IMG/VR virus record: IMGVR_UViG_3300021957_000004
Direction: 5' to 3' (one strand)
Length of the DNA stretch: 64,000 nucleotides
Source of the DNA: a virus
Of this stretch, positions 9,184-17,994 are shown one piece after another (the first letter of the stretch is position 1; each line of letters opens with the position of its first letter). The notes beneath the pieces are model-generated. The model did not search any database, had not been told where the DNA came from, and saw only the letters and a program-made list of their open reading frames with translations. The translations under genes were made by a program, and so were the position numbers.

Positions 9184-9211
9184 AATGGTAAACATAAAAG
9201 AGGATTTAAAA

Positions 9212-9652
9212 TTGGATATTAATAAATTAAGAGAACAACTCATCATAGATGAAGGACAAGTGAATGAAATATATAATGATCACCTTGGTTATCCTACATT
9301 CGGCATTGGCCATCTCGTCTTGGAAGGAGACGCAGAACATGGGGCTTCGGTTGGCACTCCAGTCACAGAAGAACGTGTTAAAGCATGTTTTGAAAAAGAC
9401 GTAGAAACAGTAATTGGAGATTGTAAAATATTACATGATGCTTGGGATGGATATCCTGAAGAAGCTAAACAAGTAATAGCTAACATGATGTTCAATATGG
9501 GTAGAACAAGGTTAAGTAAATTTAAAAAACATAATACCGCACTGCAAAGTGGGGATTGGAAAACAGCCGCTGCAGAAGGAAGAGATTCCAGATGGTATAA
9601 ACAAGTGACAAATCGAGCAGAACGATTAATGTCAAGATTAGAGGAAATATAA
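9212..9652 (+). CDS. e: Lysozyme / endolysin (GH24, T4 e-like)
   Basis: DEG...YNDHLGYPTFGIGHL (E-x8-D-x5-T triad), NMMFNMG, SRWYKQVTNRAERL. TTG start at 9212 preferred (GAGGA RBS); the ORF track opens at 9185. Confidence 0.92.
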   Translation: MDINKLREQLIIDEGQVNEIYNDHLGYPTFGIGHLVLEGDAEHGASVGTPVTEERVKACFEKDVETVIGDCKILHDAWDGYPEEAKQVIANMMFNMGRTRLSKFKKHNTALQSGDWKTAAAEGRDSRWYKQVTNRAERLMSRLEEI

Positions 9653-9910: not shown

Positions 9911-10345
9911 ATGGCTTACTCAAGTAAGGTAGTAGATCGATTCGAAGATGTACTAAAGAATCCTGCCAAACATGGTGTTGGTAGATTCGACCCCAACGAT
10001 CCAAATGTTGTAACCGGTATGACTGGTGCTCCAGCATGCGGCGATGTTATGAAGTTGGATCTTAAATTAAATCCAGACACAGAAGAAATACTAGATGTTA
10101 AATTTAAAACATATGGGTGTGGAAGTGCAATTGCATCATCTACACTTTTTGTTGAAATGCTTAAAGGTAAAACAATTGCAGAAGCAAAACTTATTAAAGA
10201 TAAAGACATTGCAGCAGCACTTGAATTACCTCCAATCAAACTCCACTGTTCTGTATTAGCAGAAGATTCAATTAGACAAGCAATTACTAAATGGGAAGAA
10301 AAAGTTTCTCATCGTAAACACAATCAACATGATAGATCTAACTGA
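9911..10345 (+). CDS. iscU: Fe-S cluster scaffold protein IscU
   Basis: GAPACGDVM, KFKTYGCGSAIASS, LPPIKLHCSVLAED: three conserved Cys and an LPPVK-type motif. Confidence 0.95.
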   Translation: MAYSSKVVDRFEDVLKNPAKHGVGRFDPNDPNVVTGMTGAPACGDVMKLDLKLNPDTEEILDVKFKTYGCGSAIASSTLFVEMLKGKTIAEAKLIKDKDIAAALELPPIKLHCSVLAEDSIRQAITKWEEKVSHRKHNQHDRSN

Positions 10346-10646
10346 TGCTGCGATCAGTCAGGCGATTAGCCAAACGGAGAATAATGGCAACGATACTATT
10401 CGAGTTGGCATTACTGGCGGCGGGTGTACTGGTTATAAGTATGTTATCCGTTTCGCTGGCTCTATTCATTCAACAGATCACATCCTAGATTACGGCAAGT
10501 TTTCTATAGTAATAGATGAGGATTCTCTTCCTCTTTTAAAAGGTTCTACTCTTGACTATGTTCAGGAAGGACTTAATCAATCATATAAGATAATCAATCC
10601 CCAAGAAACTGCATCCTGCGGTTGCGGTGTTAGTATTTCATTCTAG
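10329..10646 (+). CDS. iscA: Fe-S cluster assembly accessory protein (IscA/HesB family)
   Basis: IRVGITGGGCTGYKY, GSTLDY, NPQETASCGCGVS. Confidence 0.93.
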   Translation: MIDLTDAAISQAISQTENNGNDTIRVGITGGGCTGYKYVIRFAGSIHSTDHILDYGKFSIVIDEDSLPLLKGSTLDYVQEGLNQSYKIINPQETASCGCGVSISF

Positions 10647-10658
10647 CACTTTAAATTA

Positions 10659-10666
10659 TATAAATA
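10659..10666 (+). promoter_or_regulatory. T4 late promoter heading the curli-cyclase cluster
   Basis: Exact TATAAATA, ending 5 bp before ATG 10672. Confidence 0.7.
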
Positions 10667-10671
10667 GATAC

Positions 10672-10965
10672 ATGGAAATATTTGAACTGATTATGGAAGT
10701 AGGTGCACCTGTTGCAGGCGCATTACTTATGGGTTATTTTATATTCCTAATATTAAAACAGATATTAGGTGGCTTGGTTGATTCGATTGCGACTTTAACT
10801 ATGTTCTGTAAGAGCTTAGAAACAAGAGTTACAACAATGAACAACGAGATGATTAAAATAGATCTATTAGTAAGTAGTGCATTAGAGCTTACTCCACCTG
10901 TCGATAGAGTTGCTAGAGCAAGTAACTTTGTTGAAGATGGCAAAATAGACGCAAGGAGAGATTAA
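10672..10965 (+). CDS. Small single-TM membrane protein 1
   Basis: N-terminal TM (GAPVAGALLMGYFIFLIL) followed by a coiled-coil-like region; ATG 10672. Confidence 0.75.
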   Translation: MEIFELIMEVGAPVAGALLMGYFIFLILKQILGGLVDSIATLTMFCKSLETRVTTMNNEMIKIDLLVSSALELTPPVDRVARASNFVEDGKIDARRD

Positions 10966-10966
10966 A

Positions 10967-11281
10967 ATGGAAGAGGTAGCTTTAGTTACTAGTAGCGATC
11001 CAACCATAGTATCACTTATTAATGATTATGGTTTTCCAATCGTACTTGCTGTCGGAATGGGATATTTTATCTACTACGTATGGCAATTTATTTCCAATGA
11101 ACTGGAACCTGAAATAGAAAAAATGCACTTTGCATTAATCAGGTTAATTGATCAGGTAAGAATGCTTGATCAAGATATGATTAGATTACAGCAAAAAGTA
11201 AATGTTGTTCTCGAATATAGGGAAAGACAAAAATTCCTAGAAGAAGCAGAAGGAAAAATAAAGAATGAAGAAACCACCTAG
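10967..11281 (+). CDS. Small single-TM membrane protein 2 (paralog of the preceding gene)
   Basis: GFPIVLAVGMGYFIYYVW TM plus coiled coil; shares GxP...MGYFI with ORF 10672. Confidence 0.75.
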   Translation: MEEVALVTSSDPTIVSLINDYGFPIVLAVGMGYFIYYVWQFISNELEPEIEKMHFALIRLIDQVRMLDQDMIRLQQKVNVVLEYRERQKFLEEAEGKIKNEETT

Positions 11282-11831
11282 CGCAGGAATGAATCCCTGG
11301 TTATTAACCGGAGTTATGTTTGTAGCAATCTTGCTACTTTCTTCTGTCAATATAAAGGCAGATGAGCTTGTACACGAATTTAAGAATCCGTCCTTTTCGG
11401 GGATTGGAAGTTCTGCCCATTACCTAACAGTAGAGAACCAAGAGAAATCTAGAAGAGATGCTATCAAAAAAGATATAGAAGCAGCTCTAAAACAGGCAGA
11501 AAGAGATGCAGAGAATACCACACTTGCTAAATTTATGCGTAACCTCGAAAGTAGGATTTACGCACAACTATCTAAACAACTGGTAGAAGAGTTATTTAAA
11601 ACATGTTCAGTAGAAGCAGTAGCAGCTGGAACTTGTTCAGAAACAACATTCGGTAGTTTTGTATTAGAAGGTAATACAATAACATATCAAAAAACAATGT
11701 GTGATGCATCCCTTTGGGCTTGTACTCAAGGAGATGATGTTATTGTTATGACAATCGTGGCAGAAGATGGAACAGAAACTCAAATAGTAATACCAATAGG
11801 TGCGGGGACAGTAGGCAGTGGAGATGGTTAG
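11265..11831 (+). CDS. csgF: Curli assembly protein CsgF-like
   Basis: Signal peptide then DELVHEFKNPSFSG (CsgF N-terminal NPxFxG motif); directly upstream of csgG. Confidence 0.85.
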   Translation: MKKPPSAGMNPWLLTGVMFVAILLLSSVNIKADELVHEFKNPSFSGIGSSAHYLTVENQEKSRRDAIKKDIEAALKQAERDAENTTLAKFMRNLESRIYAQLSKQLVEELFKTCSVEAVAAGTCSETTFGSFVLEGNTITYQKTMCDASLWACTQGDDVIVMTIVAEDGTETQIVIPIGAGTVGSGDG

Positions 11832-12789
11832 AAATCTATTTTTAATATCATTACTTGGCTTACTTGCCAGTTGTGCCTCTGTTGTACCTCCAGGAGGATT
11901 AAAATCTACTGGTTGCAATCCTAATTTAAATTTACAATGTGTAGAAGAACCACAAGTGGTTGAAATGCCTACACATAAAGAATTAAGAAGTTTACCGTCA
12001 CCAGCTAAACCGGTTGTTGTAGCTGTATATCAATATATGGACAAGACTGGGCAAAGAAAACAGAAAGGTAATGCAGCAATGTTTAGTACTGCAGTATCAC
12101 AGGGCGGTGAAACAATGCTAATCGATGCATTGAAAAGTGCTGGTGAAGGAACGTGGTTTAGAGTGGTAGAAAGAGTAGGATTAGATCACCTTACTCGAGA
12201 ACGACAGATCGTTCGTACTACTAGAGAACAGTATAACACTGATGGAAAAGATGAAACAGGTCTTGCTCCATTATTGTTCGCTGGAATTATTCTTGAAGGC
12301 GGTATCATAGGTTTTGATACTAATATTGAGACAGGAGGAATAGGAGCTAGAACGCTTGGTGTTGGTTACTCACAACAATACCGAAGAGATATAGTTACAG
12401 TATCCCTCCGAGCAGTGAGTACTTTAACTGGAGAAATCCTATTAAATGTACAGACATCAAAAACTATTCTGTCGATCGCAGATGGTTATGATGTATTTAA
12501 ATTCGTTGACTTAGATACCCAATTGATAGAGATCGAAGATGGTATGACAGAAAACGAATCAGTAACACGGTCGCTTCGCTCAACAATTGAAGCAGCTGTG
12601 TTGGAAATAATCTATCAGGGAGATGAACGAGGATTCTGGGAAATCAATTGGCCAGTAAATAAAATAATAGAAGGTAAAGTTGGTGAGATTATCGACGAAG
12701 CTGAAATTATTCTTACTAAGCCTATTGAAAAATCAGATCTACCTATTGAAGTTCCTACTCCTGATAATATAGAGGAAATAAGAGGATGA
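11818..12789 (+). CDS. csgG: Curli secretion channel CsgG
   Basis: Lipobox LLASC; VAVYQYMDKTGQRK, FSTAVSQG, WFRVVERVGLDHLTRERQI, EGGIIGFDTNIETGG, VSLRAVSTLTGEIL. Confidence 0.93.
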   Translation: MEMVRNLFLISLLGLLASCASVVPPGGLKSTGCNPNLNLQCVEEPQVVEMPTHKELRSLPSPAKPVVVAVYQYMDKTGQRKQKGNAAMFSTAVSQGGETMLIDALKSAGEGTWFRVVERVGLDHLTRERQIVRTTREQYNTDGKDETGLAPLLFAGIILEGGIIGFDTNIETGGIGARTLGVGYSQQYRRDIVTVSLRAVSTLTGEILLNVQTSKTILSIADGYDVFKFVDLDTQLIEIEDGMTENESVTRSLRSTIEAAVLEIIYQGDERGFWEINWPVNKIIEGKVGEIIDEAEIILTKPIEKSDLPIEVPTPDNIEEIRG

Positions 12790-13514
12790 AAATGTTTAAA
12801 AGATATATCGCATTTTTAATTTTATTATGCCCTGTGGTTTTATTTGCCGGAGTAAACGATAACGAAGTTAAGCTTGACCAGGCTGGTGACACACTTAAAT
12901 TATACATTGACCAAATAGGTTATGGTAATAAGATTTGTGGAACTATTTCATCTGGAGCTTGTGCTAGTGATTGGACACTAACCGGTAATACCGTAACAAT
13001 GGATATTGATATGATTGGTAATCTAAACCAAATCTTCGGTCCAACCTTATTTGATAGTACTGATGTTGACTTAAAGTTAACTGGTAATAGCAATATATGG
13101 GATTGGAACGTAGGCTATGGTGGAAGTGCTGATAGTTCAACATTAGATGTAGACATTACTGGAAACTCAAATACATTCGATATAGACTGGGCTTATTCAG
13201 CTTCAGCCGAAAGATTGGATTTTGATTTAGATATTACTGGTAGTTCAAACGTCTGGAATATTGATATTGAAAACGATGATGCAACTTGGAATGTTGATGT
13301 TGTAGGAAGTTCGAATAACTTCTTAACAACCCAATCCGATGGTGCTTATAATTCAATCACTATGGAATACATAGGTTCGAATGGAGACATCGATATATTA
13401 CAATCTTCAGGTACATGCCCAACGGGTATATCTGGATGTTACGGAGTTATAAATGCAGATTTTGATTCAGAGAATGCAATTATTGACATTAAGCAAAAAG
13501 ATACTGGCGACTAG
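12786..13514 (+). CDS. Secreted curlin-like beta-solenoid protein A
   Basis: Signal peptide; repeats such as IDQIGYGN, IDMIGNLN, LKLTGNSN, VDITGNSN, LDITGSSN, VDVVGSSN; directly after csgG. Confidence 0.7.
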   Translation: MKMFKRYIAFLILLCPVVLFAGVNDNEVKLDQAGDTLKLYIDQIGYGNKICGTISSGACASDWTLTGNTVTMDIDMIGNLNQIFGPTLFDSTDVDLKLTGNSNIWDWNVGYGGSADSSTLDVDITGNSNTFDIDWAYSASAERLDFDLDITGSSNVWNIDIENDDATWNVDVVGSSNNFLTTQSDGAYNSITMEYIGSNGDIDILQSSGTCPTGISGCYGVINADFDSENAIIDIKQKDTGD

Positions 13515-14616
13515 TTTATTAGTTAGTTCTTTTGCTTTTGCAGATAATATTGGTGATATAACAGAACACAAGGGCAGTGGTGGGATTACTCGCGAAGGTG
13601 AGAGCTTTACCACTGAACTTGGACTAGGTGTTCAACAACTGGACGCAATTGAAACGGCTAAAGGTCGGATTAAATTGACATTCCTAGATGATACAGTATT
13701 AAGGTTAGTAGAACACACAGAGGTTATACTAACTGAATACTATTTTGATCCAAATAATACTAAGAAAAATACTCTTGGTATGAAGTTTGTATCAGGTACT
13801 GCACGATTCGCTACGGGCGGATTAGGATTAGTACCAAAAGAGAATATAGTAATAACAACCCCAACAGCTACCATAGCAGTTAGGGGAACAGATTTTACTA
13901 CTACTGTGGATGAATTAGGCCGAAGTTTAGTTATACTTCTACCGGAAACAGAATGTACAATCGATGGAGATTGTTCACCATCTGGATCTATCACAGTAAC
14001 AAATGAAGGCGGTACAGTAGCTTTAACCGAAGCATACCAAGCAACAATGGTATCAAGCTTTGATAAAATACCTACACAGCCCGTTACATTAGATAATATA
14101 AATTTAAATATGATAGACAATATGTTTATCGTTTCTCCACCCCAGGAAATAAAAGAGGTGGTAGAAGAAGAAAGTAAAGGCTCAGACACTAGTACTTCTT
14201 TACTAGATTTTACTGAGCTAGATCAGGATTTATTAAAAGAAGAATGGGAAGAAGAAGATTTAGAATATACTGAACTTGATATGGATCTATTGGATGTAGA
14301 TTTCTTACAAGATGTTTTAGTTGCTATTGAAGAAGTTAATATATTAAAACGTAGTACTCAGTCAGCTAACAATTCATCAGGTACAGCTGATATTCAAGGA
14401 ACCATTTTAGGCTTTGATAAAGATACACAATATAATACTATCATAGATCAAGGTATGGGACAGATATGGTTTTATAGAGAGGTGAATGGAATCATTTCTG
14501 TAAAAATACCTATAGATAGTAACACAACATTAAGGAGCGAGAATGAGGGGAAAGAAAACCTTATCACTGTTGGCGATGGTCAGTCTATCGTTATCGTCAT
14601 ACGTCAAGGCGGGTGA
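13474..14616 (+). CDS. FecR-domain periplasmic protein
   Basis: Signal peptide; DAIETAKG, FLDDTVLRL, TPTATIAVRGTDF FecR motifs; acidic linker and beta-rich C-terminus. Start 13474 or 13453. Confidence 0.85.
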   Translation: MQLLTLSKKILATSLLVSSFAFADNIGDITEHKGSGGITREGESFTTELGLGVQQLDAIETAKGRIKLTFLDDTVLRLVEHTEVILTEYYFDPNNTKKNTLGMKFVSGTARFATGGLGLVPKENIVITTPTATIAVRGTDFTTTVDELGRSLVILLPETECTIDGDCSPSGSITVTNEGGTVALTEAYQATMVSSFDKIPTQPVTLDNINLNMIDNMFIVSPPQEIKEVVEEESKGSDTSTSLLDFTELDQDLLKEEWEEEDLEYTELDMDLLDVDFLQDVLVAIEEVNILKRSTQSANNSSGTADIQGTILGFDKDTQYNTIIDQGMGQIWFYREVNGIISVKIPIDSNTTLRSENEGKENLITVGDGQSIVIVIRQGG

Positions 14617-15355
14617 TGAACACAACCACGTAGAAATAGACCAAGTTAGTTCTAGTGATAACTTTAACCTGACTATAGAACAGATCGGGTATGAAACCCA
14701 TGCAAGATTCTCTTTTGACCACAATAACAATACTGTAAATCTTTTACAATCAGGAAACAATATGTATTTTGGATATTCAGATGCATGGGGTTCTGGTTAT
14801 AGTTGGGGTGGGGATTTAGATGGATTACGTAATGAGATAGATGTAAGACAAAAATGTTCTGTGACTGTTTGTAATGCTAATGATTTCCAATTTCACGTTT
14901 GGGGTGATGACAATAAAGTCGTATTCGGACAAGGATATGAAAACAATAATAGTACTACACCAAACTGGAATTATGACGGGACAGAGCCAGGTGGAAATTT
15001 TGTTAGATTAGATATTCACGGGGACAATAACGAATTTAAGGGAAGTCAAAAGCAGGATACGAATACTATATCCCATTCTATAATAGCAAATATATACACT
15101 GATAATAATGATGTATACGTTAAACAAATGCAAAATGGAAACAAATCATTTACTCTTACAATTAGAAATTCGCATGGTAATGAAGTTGACGTTGTACAGA
15201 AAAATGACGGAGCTCATACAGCAACAGTAAATTTATTAGGATCACAGCCAACAGATTTATCTTTAACACAATCAGGTAGTACAACCCAATCATATACGTT
15301 ATCCCAAAATTGCGTGACAGTTGGTGGTTGTAGTATATCAGTAACACAGAATTAG
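14543..15355 (+). CDS. Secreted curlin-like beta-solenoid protein B
   Basis: Signal peptide ending VKA; Q/G/N-patterned repeats (IEQIG, LLQSGNN, VKQMQNGN, VVQKNDG, LTQSGS); Cys pairs. Confidence 0.7.
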   Translation: MRGKKTLSLLAMVSLSLSSYVKAGDEHNHVEIDQVSSSDNFNLTIEQIGYETHARFSFDHNNNTVNLLQSGNNMYFGYSDAWGSGYSWGGDLDGLRNEIDVRQKCSVTVCNANDFQFHVWGDDNKVVFGQGYENNNSTTPNWNYDGTEPGGNFVRLDIHGDNNEFKGSQKQDTNTISHSIIANIYTDNNDVYVKQMQNGNKSFTLTIRNSHGNEVDVVQKNDGAHTATVNLLGSQPTDLSLTQSGSTTQSYTLSQNCVTVGGCSISVTQN

Positions 15356-15377
15356 TATTGCATAGTATAACACTTTT

Positions 15378-17225
15378 ATGAAATATATAACAACGATTTG
15401 GACAAGTATTGCACTTTGTATTGCACTTTTAGGCATAAGAGTTTTAGACCCAGTTTTAGTAGAACAATTAAGATTAAATAGTTTCGATCAATATATTCAG
15501 AGCTTACCCGACAAGGAATCCGATGTTGTTCTACTATCATTCGGAGAAGAAACTCTAGCTACATATGGCCAATACCCTTTTCCAAGACATACCTACGCAC
15601 AACTGATATCAGATCTAAGAGCTGCTAACGCTGGGATGATTGGGTTTACTATTATGTTTCCAGAAGCAGATAGGTTTGGTGGTGATGAGGTATTTATTTC
15701 CTGGGTAAACAATAACGGAGTCATTCTCGCGCAAGACGCGTCCTCTCGCGGGCGCTCGGATACGGCCCCGTACGTGGGTACGGCCACGCTCGGCGAGGGC
15801 GACGCGTACGACTTTGTTCCTAAATATAGTGGGTTAGTAACAAATATAAAAGAATTAGAAGACGCTGCATGGGGTGTAGGATTAATAAATGCAGGTCAAG
15901 AAGTAGATAATATAACAAGACGGATTCCTTTATTGTCCCAAATAAACGGACAGTTATATCCATCAATGCCTTTAGAAATCATAAGAGTAATACAAGATAA
16001 AAAGTCTTATTCACTAAAAGCAAACTATGATGGTATAGAAAATGTAATGATTCCACCATATGAACCTATTCAAACAGATTACAATAGTTCTATATGGTTA
16101 AATATGAATTATACTCATAAAGAATATGAATACGGTAAAGATGTATTACCTAATCTTCAAGGTCAAACAGTCTTGGTTGGTCTAACAGCAAGTGGCCTTG
16201 CTTCTCAAATACCAACTCCTCAAGGTTTGTTCTCTGCTCACCAATTGCAGGCGTCGGCACTTCAGACTGTGATAGATGGGAATTCGATATCTCGTCCTGG
16301 TTGGACATACTTAGTTGAATTGTTAGCTCTCGCCATAGGATCGGTTCTGATTGTTCTAGGGATATATCAGATGTCTGTCTTGACAGGTGCTGTATTCTCC
16401 GCCGTGATCGTGCTTGGCTACTCTGTATATGTTTGGTACGTCTGGACCTCAATGGGTATACTCCTTGATCTAACCTATCCTATAATAGTATATATACTTT
16501 CTTTTTCCTCAGCCGCATTTAATAATTTTTATATACAATTTAAATTAAGACAACAGATTAAAGGTCAATTCTCTACATACCTTTCTCCAGATATGGTTAA
16601 CATGCTAGTCAAAGATCCTAGCTTAATGAAGCTCGGTGGTGATAGAAAAGAAATGACATTCCTCTTTATGGATATATGTGGTTTTACCCCTATCTCGGAA
16701 TACTATAAGAACAATGATGATCCAGAAGGATTAGTAGAATTAGTCAATGAATTCCTAGATGCTATGACTACTATCATCTTATCCAACGGCGGAACCATCG
16801 ATAAATATATGGGTGACTGTATAATGGCATTTTGGAATGCTCCATTACCTTGTAAGAACCATGCTGAAATGGCAGTTAAGTCAGCAATAGAAATAGAAGA
16901 AAAAACAAATGAACTTAAAGAACTTTATAAAGAACGTGGCCTTCCCGATATTAACGTTGGCACTGGTGTTAACACCGGCGATTGCATTGTTGGTAATATG
17001 GGTAGTAAATCCAGATTTGATTATTCGGTCATTGGAGATGCAGTCAACCTTGCCGCCAGGCTCGAGGCTACCGCGGCTCGTCATGAGTATGTAGAATACA
17101 AAACCATTATATCATCCTTCACACAACAACTTCTTCCTCAGGGTTATGTCTCTCATAACATCGGAACCATCAAGGTTAAGGGTAAAGAAGAAGAAATCAC
17201 TATATATTCCCCTAAAAAGAAATAG
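15378..17225 (+). CDS. CHASE2-domain class III adenylate cyclase
   Basis: N-terminal TM, CHASE2-type region (GQYPFPRHTYAQLI, FPEADRFGGD, RRIPL), three TMs, FSTYLSP, FMDICGFT, IDKYMGDCIMAFW, RFDYSVIGDAVNLAARLE. Confidence 0.93.
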   Translation: MKYITTIWTSIALCIALLGIRVLDPVLVEQLRLNSFDQYIQSLPDKESDVVLLSFGEETLATYGQYPFPRHTYAQLISDLRAANAGMIGFTIMFPEADRFGGDEVFISWVNNNGVILAQDASSRGRSDTAPYVGTATLGEGDAYDFVPKYSGLVTNIKELEDAAWGVGLINAGQEVDNITRRIPLLSQINGQLYPSMPLEIIRVIQDKKSYSLKANYDGIENVMIPPYEPIQTDYNSSIWLNMNYTHKEYEYGKDVLPNLQGQTVLVGLTASGLASQIPTPQGLFSAHQLQASALQTVIDGNSISRPGWTYLVELLALAIGSVLIVLGIYQMSVLTGAVFSAVIVLGYSVYVWYVWTSMGILLDLTYPIIVYILSFSSAAFNNFYIQFKLRQQIKGQFSTYLSPDMVNMLVKDPSLMKLGGDRKEMTFLFMDICGFTPISEYYKNNDDPEGLVELVNEFLDAMTTIILSNGGTIDKYMGDCIMAFWNAPLPCKNHAEMAVKSAIEIEEKTNELKELYKERGLPDINVGTGVNTGDCIVGNMGSKSRFDYSVIGDAVNLAARLEATAARHEYVEYKTIISSFTQQLLPQGYVSHNIGTIKVKGKEEEITIYSPKKK

Positions 17226-17259
17226 TTTCGTCACAATCTCGTGAACTTTGCAAAAAAAG

Positions 17260-17289
17260 GTTTACATCCATGCTGTTTTACGGTATAAT
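17260..17289 (+). promoter_or_regulatory. T4-type early promoter
   Basis: GTTTACA-N17-TATAAT preceded by an A tract. Confidence 0.85.
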
Positions 17290-17854: not shown

Positions 17855-17964
17855 GATGGGACGAGTGGGTGTAATGCGTAAGGCTTTAAATAGCGAACCG
17901 TTTCCCAGAATCCTTTCTTGTGACGTAACTGTGACAATTCGTGACGAAATAGTCACAAAAAAAG

Positions 17965-17994
17965 GTTTACAAACTACCAAAACTACGGTATAAT
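17965..17994 (+). promoter_or_regulatory. T4-type early promoter
   Basis: GTTTACA-N17-TATAAT preceded by an A tract and GTGAC repeats. Confidence 0.85.

Follow-up and report, generated by a model that had tools for sequence, protein, structure and literature searches.

Curli-type secretion genes joined to a FecR-domain protein and an adenylate cyclase (AC) have been described in marine phages by Wittmers et al. (2022, mSystems, PMC9599517), who reported a complete type VIII secretion system (T8SS)–FecR–AC module in HTVC023P-type podoviruses and in pelagimyophages. In the published module, up to two small genes labelled 'histidine kinase' (at least one is present) are followed by CsgF, CsgG, CsgA/B, FecR, a second CsgA/B and the adenylate cyclase; it was found at all 65 GOV2.0 stations, makes up about 0.1% of assembled viral proteins and is expressed in ocean metatranscriptomes. 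An alphaproteobacterial origin with transfer between virus families was inferred, and cyclic AMP (cAMP) was suggested as the trigger of curli gene expression (PMC9599517). Two other studies speak of a 'curli operon' only, with neither FecR nor cyclase (Zaragoza-Solas et al. 2020, PMC7029224; Buchholz et al. 2022, PMC9004378). Here we analyse a cluster of eight genes at positions 10659–17225 of a 64,000-nucleotide stretch of viral DNA (IMG/VR record IMGVR_UViG_3300021957_000004; the window). The cluster is already known: it is another lineage of the published, very abundant pelagiphage T8SS–FecR–AC module.

FecR-domain proteins have also been described beside CHASE2 receptors in bacteria. In Sinorhizobium meliloti, clr, cyaD1, the FecR-domain gene smc02177 and smc02178 are consecutive loci, and deletion of CHASE2 makes CyaD1 constitutive (PMC5498481), which means that CHASE2 gates the activity of this related cyclase. 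In Burkholderia, a LysM–FecR protein and a CHASE2 histidine kinase are encoded in one biofilm-regulating operon (PMC5192318).

Gene content and conservation of the module

The window comes from an uncultured marine T4-like myophage, and also encodes an ATP-dependent DNA ligase, a gp6-type baseplate wedge, tail proteins and a T4-lysozyme-like protein. Its eight-gene cluster runs in one orientation, with genes that abut or overlap, in the order TM1, TM2, CsgF, CsgG, CurA, FecR-fold protein, CurB and CHASE2 cyclase (Table 1). This arrangement behind the motif TATAAATA had been proposed in an earlier reading made from the sequence alone (the sequence-only reading), and proved correct in every particular that could be checked. 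The gene set, the gene order and the marine T4-like phage background are those of the published module, from which the cluster has no structural difference. That earlier reading had held that only csgF and csgG were noted in marine myophages, which is mistaken: the 2022 publication covers the module in full, FecR and cyclase included (PMC9599517).

We compared viral relatives in a cyclase-anchored set comprising the best 80 loci, Pelagibacter phage HTVC008M, Methylophilales phage Melnitz and the window, of which 49 hold TM genes with at least 150 nucleotides (nt) upstream. The order TM1–TM2–CsgF–CsgG–CurA–FecR–(CurB)–cyclase was kept in 49/49 of these, and FecR and cyclase genes lay downstream of CsgG in 46/46 CsgG-anchored loci with enough flank on both sides. 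The sequence-only reading had named this neighbourhood comparison as a test of its proposal, and the linkage of FecR and cyclase to csgF/csgG came through it intact. Cyclase relatives occur on at least 597 IMG/VR contigs. Gene set and gene order are identical in HTVC008M and Melnitz; proteins of the window are 35–51% identical to those of HTVC008M (44% for the cyclase), and its CsgG is 42–45% identical to CsgG of HTVC008M and Melnitz. A megablast search of the cluster against deposited phages gave no match, and these two phages were found at the protein level only. Their GenBank records name CsgF, CsgG, the cyclase and a curlin-associated protein, and that of Melnitz alone names a FecR-domain protein. 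PHROG families exist for all eight genes. Two kinds of variation were seen: CurB is missing from one phage subclade (L062–L082), in which FecR and cyclase lie too close together to accommodate it, and some relatives carry insertions of NifU/IscA or glycosyltransferase genes between CurB and cyclase.

The cluster is also present on three large IMG/VR contigs, L229 (340 kb), L262 (338 kb) and L227 (164 kb), which represent either jumbo phages or cellular DNA. L229 has the TM1/TM2 pair, and L227 and L262 carry the cluster without an adjacent pair; the flanks in L262 and L227 hold genes for S-adenosylmethionine synthetase, sugar epimerase, glycosyltransferase, ketoacyl synthase and carbamoyltransferase.

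Table 1. Promoter motif and genes of the cluster at 10659–17225 of the window
Feature	Description	Position	Strand	Remarks
TATAAATA	T4-type late promoter motif	10659..10666	+	5 nt 5′ of ATG at 10672
TM1	Single-pass membrane protein, 97 aa	10672..10965	+	phrog_18771, E 3.5e-23
TM2	Single-pass membrane protein, 104 aa	10967..11281	+	phrog_18771, E 1.9e-27
CsgF	CsgF-like, 188 aa	11265..11831	+	Pfam CsgF, E 2.6e-10; phrog_35372, E 5e-38
CsgG	CsgG-like outer-membrane lipoprotein channel, 323 aa	11818..12789	+	Pfam CsgG, E 6.3e-48
CurA	Secreted curlin-like repeat protein, 242 aa	12786..13514	+	Homology to curlins
FecR	Periplasmic FecR-fold protein, 380 aa	13474..14616	+	Pfam FecR, E 1.8e-10
CurB	Second secreted curlin-like repeat protein, 270 aa	14543..15355	+	Homology to curlins
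Cyclase	CHASE2 + class III adenylate cyclase, 615 aa	15378..17225	+	Pfam CHASE2, E 5.1e-36; Guanylate_cyc, E 2e-19

Proteins and promoter of the cluster

Both the channel and its partner retain the features of type VIII secretion. CsgF has a signal/anchor segment, a Cys-rich extension at its C terminus and an N-terminal F-K-N-P-S-F-S-G motif, which 50 homologues share. By comparison with the Escherichia coli CsgG–CsgF structures, we take this motif to be the segment that binds CsgG and inserts into its barrel. CsgG itself carries the lipobox LLAS/C, the Cys of which is conserved among homologues, and a C-terminal tail that is not. No match to CsgE, CsgC or CsgD was obtained among the eight open reading frames (ORFs) in a general Pfam scan, which was not a search aimed at these families; all three are reported absent from pelagiphage modules, as in Alphaproteobacteria (PMC9599517).

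CurA, the FecR-fold protein and CurB each begin with a signal peptide, and CurB has a C-terminal Cys pair. CurA gave a weak match to the CsgA equivalog model (E 1.4e-3). Hidden Markov models (HMMs) of phage CurA and CurB matched Curlin_rpt proteins encoded beside csgF–csgG in seven alphaproteobacterial genomes; the bacterial proteins so matched are strong Curlin_rpt members, with E values down to 1e-69, and the CurB model matched bacterial curlins at E down to 3e-13. The Pfam Curlin_rpt cut-off is passed by Melnitz CurA, Melnitz CurB and HTVC008M CurB. In the predicted structure of CurB (predicted template-modelling score 0.76), paired strands stack into a regular beta-solenoid, and the top fold neighbours are all beta-helical; the fold search returned nothing at E ≤ 0.001, listing generic beta-helix proteins only and no curlin structure. 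By homology to genuine curlins and, for CurB, by the beta-solenoid model, the two proteins of the window are putative curlins that may form amyloid. Lectin-like domains are fused in the CurB slot of some relatives, namely PA14 in HTVC008M CurB (L001:6639–7964) and F5/8 type C (discoidin) in L227:10863–12608, and these fusions suggest a surface-exposed, ligand-binding subunit.

The FecR-fold protein is more likely to start at 13474, which gives 380 residues with a signal peptide, than at 13453. Its layout is a signal peptide, a FecR/PupR-CJM-like beta domain, an acidic linker and a small C-terminal beta domain. In the predicted structure (mean predicted local distance difference test score, pLDDT, 74), the linker is conserved but of low confidence. 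The N-terminal beta domain resembles the cell-surface signalling domain of PupR (CCSSD; Z 15.4), the Bacteroidetes anti-sigma factor 4m0h (Z 13.1) and the periplasmic retention (RIN) domain of the RTX adhesin MpIBP (PDB 5ix9; Z 7.1, 22% identity), and is a periplasmic FecR domain of the CJM type. For the C-terminal beta domain there was no fold match above Z 4; an assignment of the 5ix9 match to this domain was dropped, a second aligner having put the match on the N-terminal FecR domain. Neither a cytoplasmic anti-sigma domain nor a membrane anchor was found in the protein, the signal peptide running straight into the beta domain. A Pfam scan detected no extracytoplasmic function (ECF) sigma factor or TonB-dependent transducer gene in the cluster, and was not extended to a whole-genome search for such partners. 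Because it lacks an anti-sigma domain and an anchor, the protein as predicted does not qualify functionally as a regulator of the FecR type. Its FecR domain is 33% identical (E 3e-17) to that of a bacterial protein encoded in a locus with type I secretion system (T1SS) genes and a CHASE2 cyclase. Among the matches listed, at least 120 relatives of the protein are found, all of them marine metagenome copies with 83–100% identity. In one relative (L024:7795–8954), the FecR gene is split into two ORFs of 256 and 125 residues by a frameshift or an assembly error.

From its hydrophobic segments, the cyclase has one transmembrane helix, a periplasmic CHASE2 domain, three transmembrane helices and a cytoplasmic catalytic domain, which is the layout of a CHASE2 receptor; the Pfam CHASE2 match spans residues 14–324. 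The motifs and catalytic residues that had been claimed for it are all in the translation, which contains FMDICGFT, KYMGD, IDKY, RFDY and NLAAR, and all six residues expected of a class III cyclase are present (D432, D480, K476, D548, N557 and R561). By the residue roles established for class III cyclases, these are two metal-binding Asp, the substrate-specifying Lys and Asp, and the transition-state Asn and Arg. The protein is therefore a predicted adenylate cyclase with a complete catalytic residue set. Four of them, D432, K476, D480 and R561, do not vary among eight phage homologues. The Melnitz cyclase (L002:8326–10377) has Ser at the adenine-specifying Asp and at the catalytic Asn, together with about 70 extra residues at its C terminus, and may be weakly active or of changed specificity.

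TM1 and TM2 are paralogues of about 100 residues, each with one transmembrane helix and a coiled coil. The coiled-coil tail of TM1 ends in a conserved ARRD motif and TM1 contains no His; TM2 has one His, which is conserved in 16/16 orthologues aligned. No HisKA, HAMP or HATPase_c match was found at E ≤ 1 in 36 TM1/TM2 family members. The label of sensor histidine kinase (PMC9599517) fails for both proteins, which have no kinase domain and no ATPase domain, TM1 also being without a His. TM1 was found in 47–50 related loci, and in L223, L240, L249 and L257 the pair is inverted or relocated yet still attached to the cluster. TM1 and TM2 are probably module-specific inner-membrane coiled-coil proteins.

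The genes are tightly packed. A 1-nt gap separates TM1 from TM2, the following junctions are overlaps of 17, 14, 4, 41–62 and 74 nt, and a 22-nt gap precedes the cyclase. The motif TATAAATA lies near the start of the first TM gene in 39/49 related loci, mostly at −13. It is not over-represented in the window (16 copies against 12.4 expected), and we regard it as meaningful because its position is conserved and not because of its frequency. Few further copies occur inside the cluster, where no convincing terminator was found 5′ of 17225. An early-type promoter lies just 3′ of the cyclase stop, and the unit therefore ends at 17225. The best explanation of this layout is an operon transcribed as one late unit. 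Because a late promoter would drive the operon and the cyclase is its last gene, we infer that the module produces cAMP as an output, which would rule it out as a trigger of curli gene expression.

Several features of the surroundings deserve mention. Early-type promoters of the form TTTACA-17-TATAAT are located at 17261–17289 and 17966–17994, downstream of the cyclase gene, and GTCAC/GTGAC boxes (17230–17245 and 17920–17956), including one perfect GTGAC-N6-GTCAC palindrome, lie just 5′ of both. The CRP site TGTGA-N5-9-TCACA does not occur anywhere in the window, and the spacing of the GTGAC boxes is 2 bp wider than in a CRP site. A near-consensus sigma-70-like promoter, TTAACA-18-TATAAT (11/12), is found within CurA at 13323–13352, about 120 nt 5′ of the FecR start; sigma-70-like matches in the region are no commoner than in shuffles, and this copy may be due to chance. 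A pair of NifU-like and IscA-like genes lies 5′ of TM1, at 9911–10646. In several relatives the pair lies between CurB and cyclase, and it is missing from others, in which the lysozyme-like gene abuts TM1 (loci compared: L015, L035, L022, L031, L053 and L040). It behaves like a mobile iron–sulfur assembly cassette within or beside the operon.

Bacterial relatives of the two halves

To place the cyclase among cellular proteins, we took its 80 closest cellular relatives, which are 29–36% identical over their full length and mostly alphaproteobacterial. No CsgG, CsgF or curlin was found within 10 kb of these 80 bacterial CHASE2 cyclases. Instead, a FecR-domain gene was nearby in 29/80 loci and a giant (>600 residues) FecR-headed protein, in some cases with cadherin-like, Ig or RTX repeats, in 17/80. 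An HlyD-type membrane-fusion gene was present in 24/80, a BTLCP protease matching the LapG model in 16/80, and a TPR-protein gene, usually beside a small FecR gene, in 10/80. Set against a control of only 14 loci, the enrichment of FecR genes was significant (29/80 versus 0/14; Fisher p 0.004), as was that of HlyD (p 0.018), and that of BTLCP was not significant with 14 control loci (p 0.12). The bacterial FecR-headed proteins match the NCBI LapA retention-module model where the FecR domain begins; the LapA and LapG matches are below the curated cut-offs.

The secretion half has other relatives. Against the phage HMM, alphaproteobacterial CsgG proteins reach E values as low as 4e-88, and the CsgF gene adjoins CsgG there. 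Within 20 kb of seven alphaproteobacterial csgF–csgG–curlin loci there was no FecR-domain gene, no CHASE2 cyclase and no TM1/TM2 pair. Conversely, phage CsgG as a query found no CsgG in five genomes that contain the closest cyclase relatives. The phage cluster joins two bacterial modules that are found only apart in the bacteria sampled: csgF–csgG–curlin, and FecR with a CHASE2 cyclase.

Because bacterial FecR genes travel with CHASE2 cyclases and not with csgFG, the FecR gene most likely entered the phage together with the cyclase. FecR genes recur beside bacterial CHASE2 cyclases, including that of S. meliloti, and in Burkholderia beside a CHASE2 histidine kinase; a FecR–CHASE2 partnership is for this reason a reasonable inference. 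The FecR/cyclase half seems to derive from bacterial adhesin-secretion loci, which we offer as a lead. In the cyclase tree, the phage clade falls outside all bacterial sequences and does not pick a donor context, be it adhesin/T1SS or small FecR with TPR.

One type of bacterial locus stands out. In Bradyrhizobium and related Alphaproteobacteria (L088, L089, L092, L102, L104, L111, L124, L125 and L135), the CHASE2 adenylate cyclase gene shares its neighbourhood with T1SS genes, a gene for a LapG-like BTLCP protease and one for a giant FecR-headed cadherin/RTX protein. Here the cyclase stands in the place that LapD occupies in classical Lap systems. Among the papers listed in a literature search, none joined CHASE2 with LapG, BTLCP or RTX-adhesin terms.

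Proposed working and comparison with known systems

We propose that the cluster encodes a working curli-type exporter, which would decorate infected cells at a late stage, and that the FecR/CHASE2 pair joined to it would turn periplasmic or surface state into cAMP, a reading to which we give somewhat better than even odds (probability of about 0.55). Late in infection, CsgG and CsgF would build an outer-membrane channel, through which CurA and CurB would be exported. On the surface of the infected cell they would assemble into beta-solenoid fibres or a coat, with CurB as the variable and sometimes lectin-bearing subunit. The FecR-fold protein would stay in the periplasm and act with the CHASE2 domain of the cyclase, as is presumed for its bacterial relatives, in which a FecR-like domain often heads a type-I-secreted giant adhesin. 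Together, the pair would respond to fibre export, to assembly or to contact by making cAMP. The homology of the Cur proteins to curlins and the retention of the CsgF motif and the CsgG lipobox make export the simpler reading. The sequence-only reading had seen a sensor circuit rather than an amyloid exporter, a view that finds partial support: a FecR–CHASE2 partnership is reasonable, but the case against export is not supported.

Several observations weigh against this proposal. Both CurA and CurB of the window itself fall below the Pfam Curlin_rpt cut-off. Clumping of Melnitz-infected cells was not seen by Buchholz et al. (PMC9004378). Among the eight phage cyclases, that of Melnitz alone has Ser in place of D548 and N557. 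A search of HTVC008M, Melnitz and three large related contigs for cAMP receptor domains (cNMP_binding or GAF) gave no hit. In S. meliloti, the FecR-domain protein encoded by smc02177 is not required for signal perception by CyaD1, and is itself a cAMP/Clr target (PMC5498481). Finally, many podovirus modules keep FecR without the cyclase and the second curlin (PMC9599517), so that FecR may serve the secretion system directly.

The last two points also feed the main rival, in which two independent functions share one operon: the FecR-fold protein would be an accessory of the curli channel, as a stand-in for CsgE or a curlin chaperone, and the cyclase a separate host-takeover enzyme answering an unrelated external or periplasmic cue. 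We hold this to be unlikely, though it deserves to be taken seriously. Besides the podovirus modules and the dispensable S. meliloti protein, it draws on the myovirus subclade that keeps the cyclase without CurB, on the NifU/IscA or glycosyltransferase genes that can be inserted between CurB and cyclase, and on the lack of a reported CsgE in these modules (PMC9599517). It sits uneasily, however, with the sampled bacteria, which link FecR genes to CHASE2 cyclases (29/80 versus 0/14) and not to csgFG, with the 33% identity between the phage FecR domain and one from a cyclase-linked bacterial locus, and with the presence of both genes in all 46 assessable CsgG-anchored viral loci.

A second rival dispenses with the fibre. 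Following the proposal of Buchholz et al. 2022, CsgG–CsgF would be a repurposed gated outer-membrane pore, similar to a pinholin or a secretin, that times lysis or passes small molecules, and the remaining proteins would be regulators. An altered CsgGF pore was modelled in that study, in which no clumping of infected cells was seen and csgA/B was assumed to be absent (PMC9004378); the operon, however, contains two conserved curlin-family genes with signal peptides. The unit is late by its promoter motif, and the lysozyme-like gene at 9185–9652, correctly anticipated as an endolysin gene about 1 kb upstream, abuts TM1 in many relatives; in HTVC008M and Melnitz, by contrast, the cluster is far from any lysozyme gene. 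TM1 and TM2, as small membrane proteins, could be holin-like, but they move with the cluster and not with the lysozyme gene. We judge the pore reading quite improbable, and the link to lysis timing is pure speculation. The published annotation, which makes FecR a regulator of the iron (ferric citrate) type and has the small genes encode histidine kinases acting with cAMP on curli transcription (PMC9599517), can appeal to the name of the Pfam domain, to the one conserved His of TM2 and to the influence of cAMP–CRP and two-component systems on E. coli curli expression (PMC9599517), but is very improbable given a FecR protein made up of a signal peptide and periplasmic domains only, no ECF sigma factor or TonB-dependent transducer gene in the cluster, nearest FecR relatives that are domains of adhesin-type and cyclase-linked proteins, 36 TM family members without kinase domains and a TM1 without His, and a T4-type late promoter driving an operon in which the cyclase comes last.

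The proposal of an exporter joined to a FecR/CHASE2 pair allows a broader and much more tentative idea. CHASE2 receptors in general might sense periplasmic FecR-like domains that are part of secreted surface fibres or dock on them, the fibres being RTX adhesins in bacteria and curli in phages. The cell or phage would then read the state of the filament (exported, anchored, cleaved or loaded) as cAMP, and pelagiphages would have put a curli fibre in place of the type I adhesin in this circuit, with fibre assembly or cell contact feeding back on late infection. We think it unlikely that this holds in full. No CHASE2 ligand is known to have been identified since the domain was defined, and the idea, if true, would give a first candidate.

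As a discovery, the cluster adds nothing to the published module; its value lies in sharper hypotheses. New here are the recognition of the CHASE2 domain and of FecR as its habitual partner, the case against labelling FecR an 'iron regulator' and the TM proteins 'histidine kinase', the late-operon argument about the direction of signalling and the lead to adhesin-secretion loci. SAR11 and OM43 hosts encode no curli genes (PMC9599517, PMC9004378) and the module is widespread, and for these reasons it would be a widespread means by which phages alter the surface of bacteria that rank among the most abundant in the sea, and possibly their signalling as well. The FecR protein is better studied as the partner of a CHASE2 cyclase than as an iron regulator, and cAMP as an output of the late operon. 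For what CHASE2 senses, the bacterial relatives in adhesin-secretion loci, for example in Bradyrhizobium, offer tractable organisms.

Compared with the reading given in PMC9599517, in which CHASE2 is never mentioned (0 occurrences), ours recognises CHASE2, takes FecR to be its usual partner rather than an iron regulator and does not regard the 'HK' genes as kinases. With the seven alphaproteobacterial csgF–csgG–curlin loci compared, the phage cluster shares CsgF followed by CsgG, and curlins; FecR, the CHASE2 cyclase and the TM pair are in the phage only. With the bacterial FecR and CHASE2 pairs of S. meliloti and Burkholderia, it shares a periplasmic FecR-domain protein encoded beside a CHASE2 membrane receptor; the closest cyclases show 30–36% identity along their whole length. 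In the loci examined, however, the neighbours of such bacterial pairs are TPR proteins in some cases and T1SS genes, LapG-like proteases and giant adhesins in others, CsgG being absent throughout, and the bacterial systems have a cAMP receptor (Clr) or a response regulator, neither of which is recognisable in the phage genomes examined. The likeness to Lap control of RTX adhesins (LapA, LapG and LapD; MpIBP) lies in the resemblance of the FecR fold to the retention domain of MpIBP. The phage cluster has curli instead of an RTX adhesin, the Pfam scan of its eight ORFs showed neither a protease nor a T1SS gene, and where the inner-membrane partner in Lap systems is the cyclic di-GMP receptor LapD, in the phage it would be a CHASE2 cyclase that makes cAMP.

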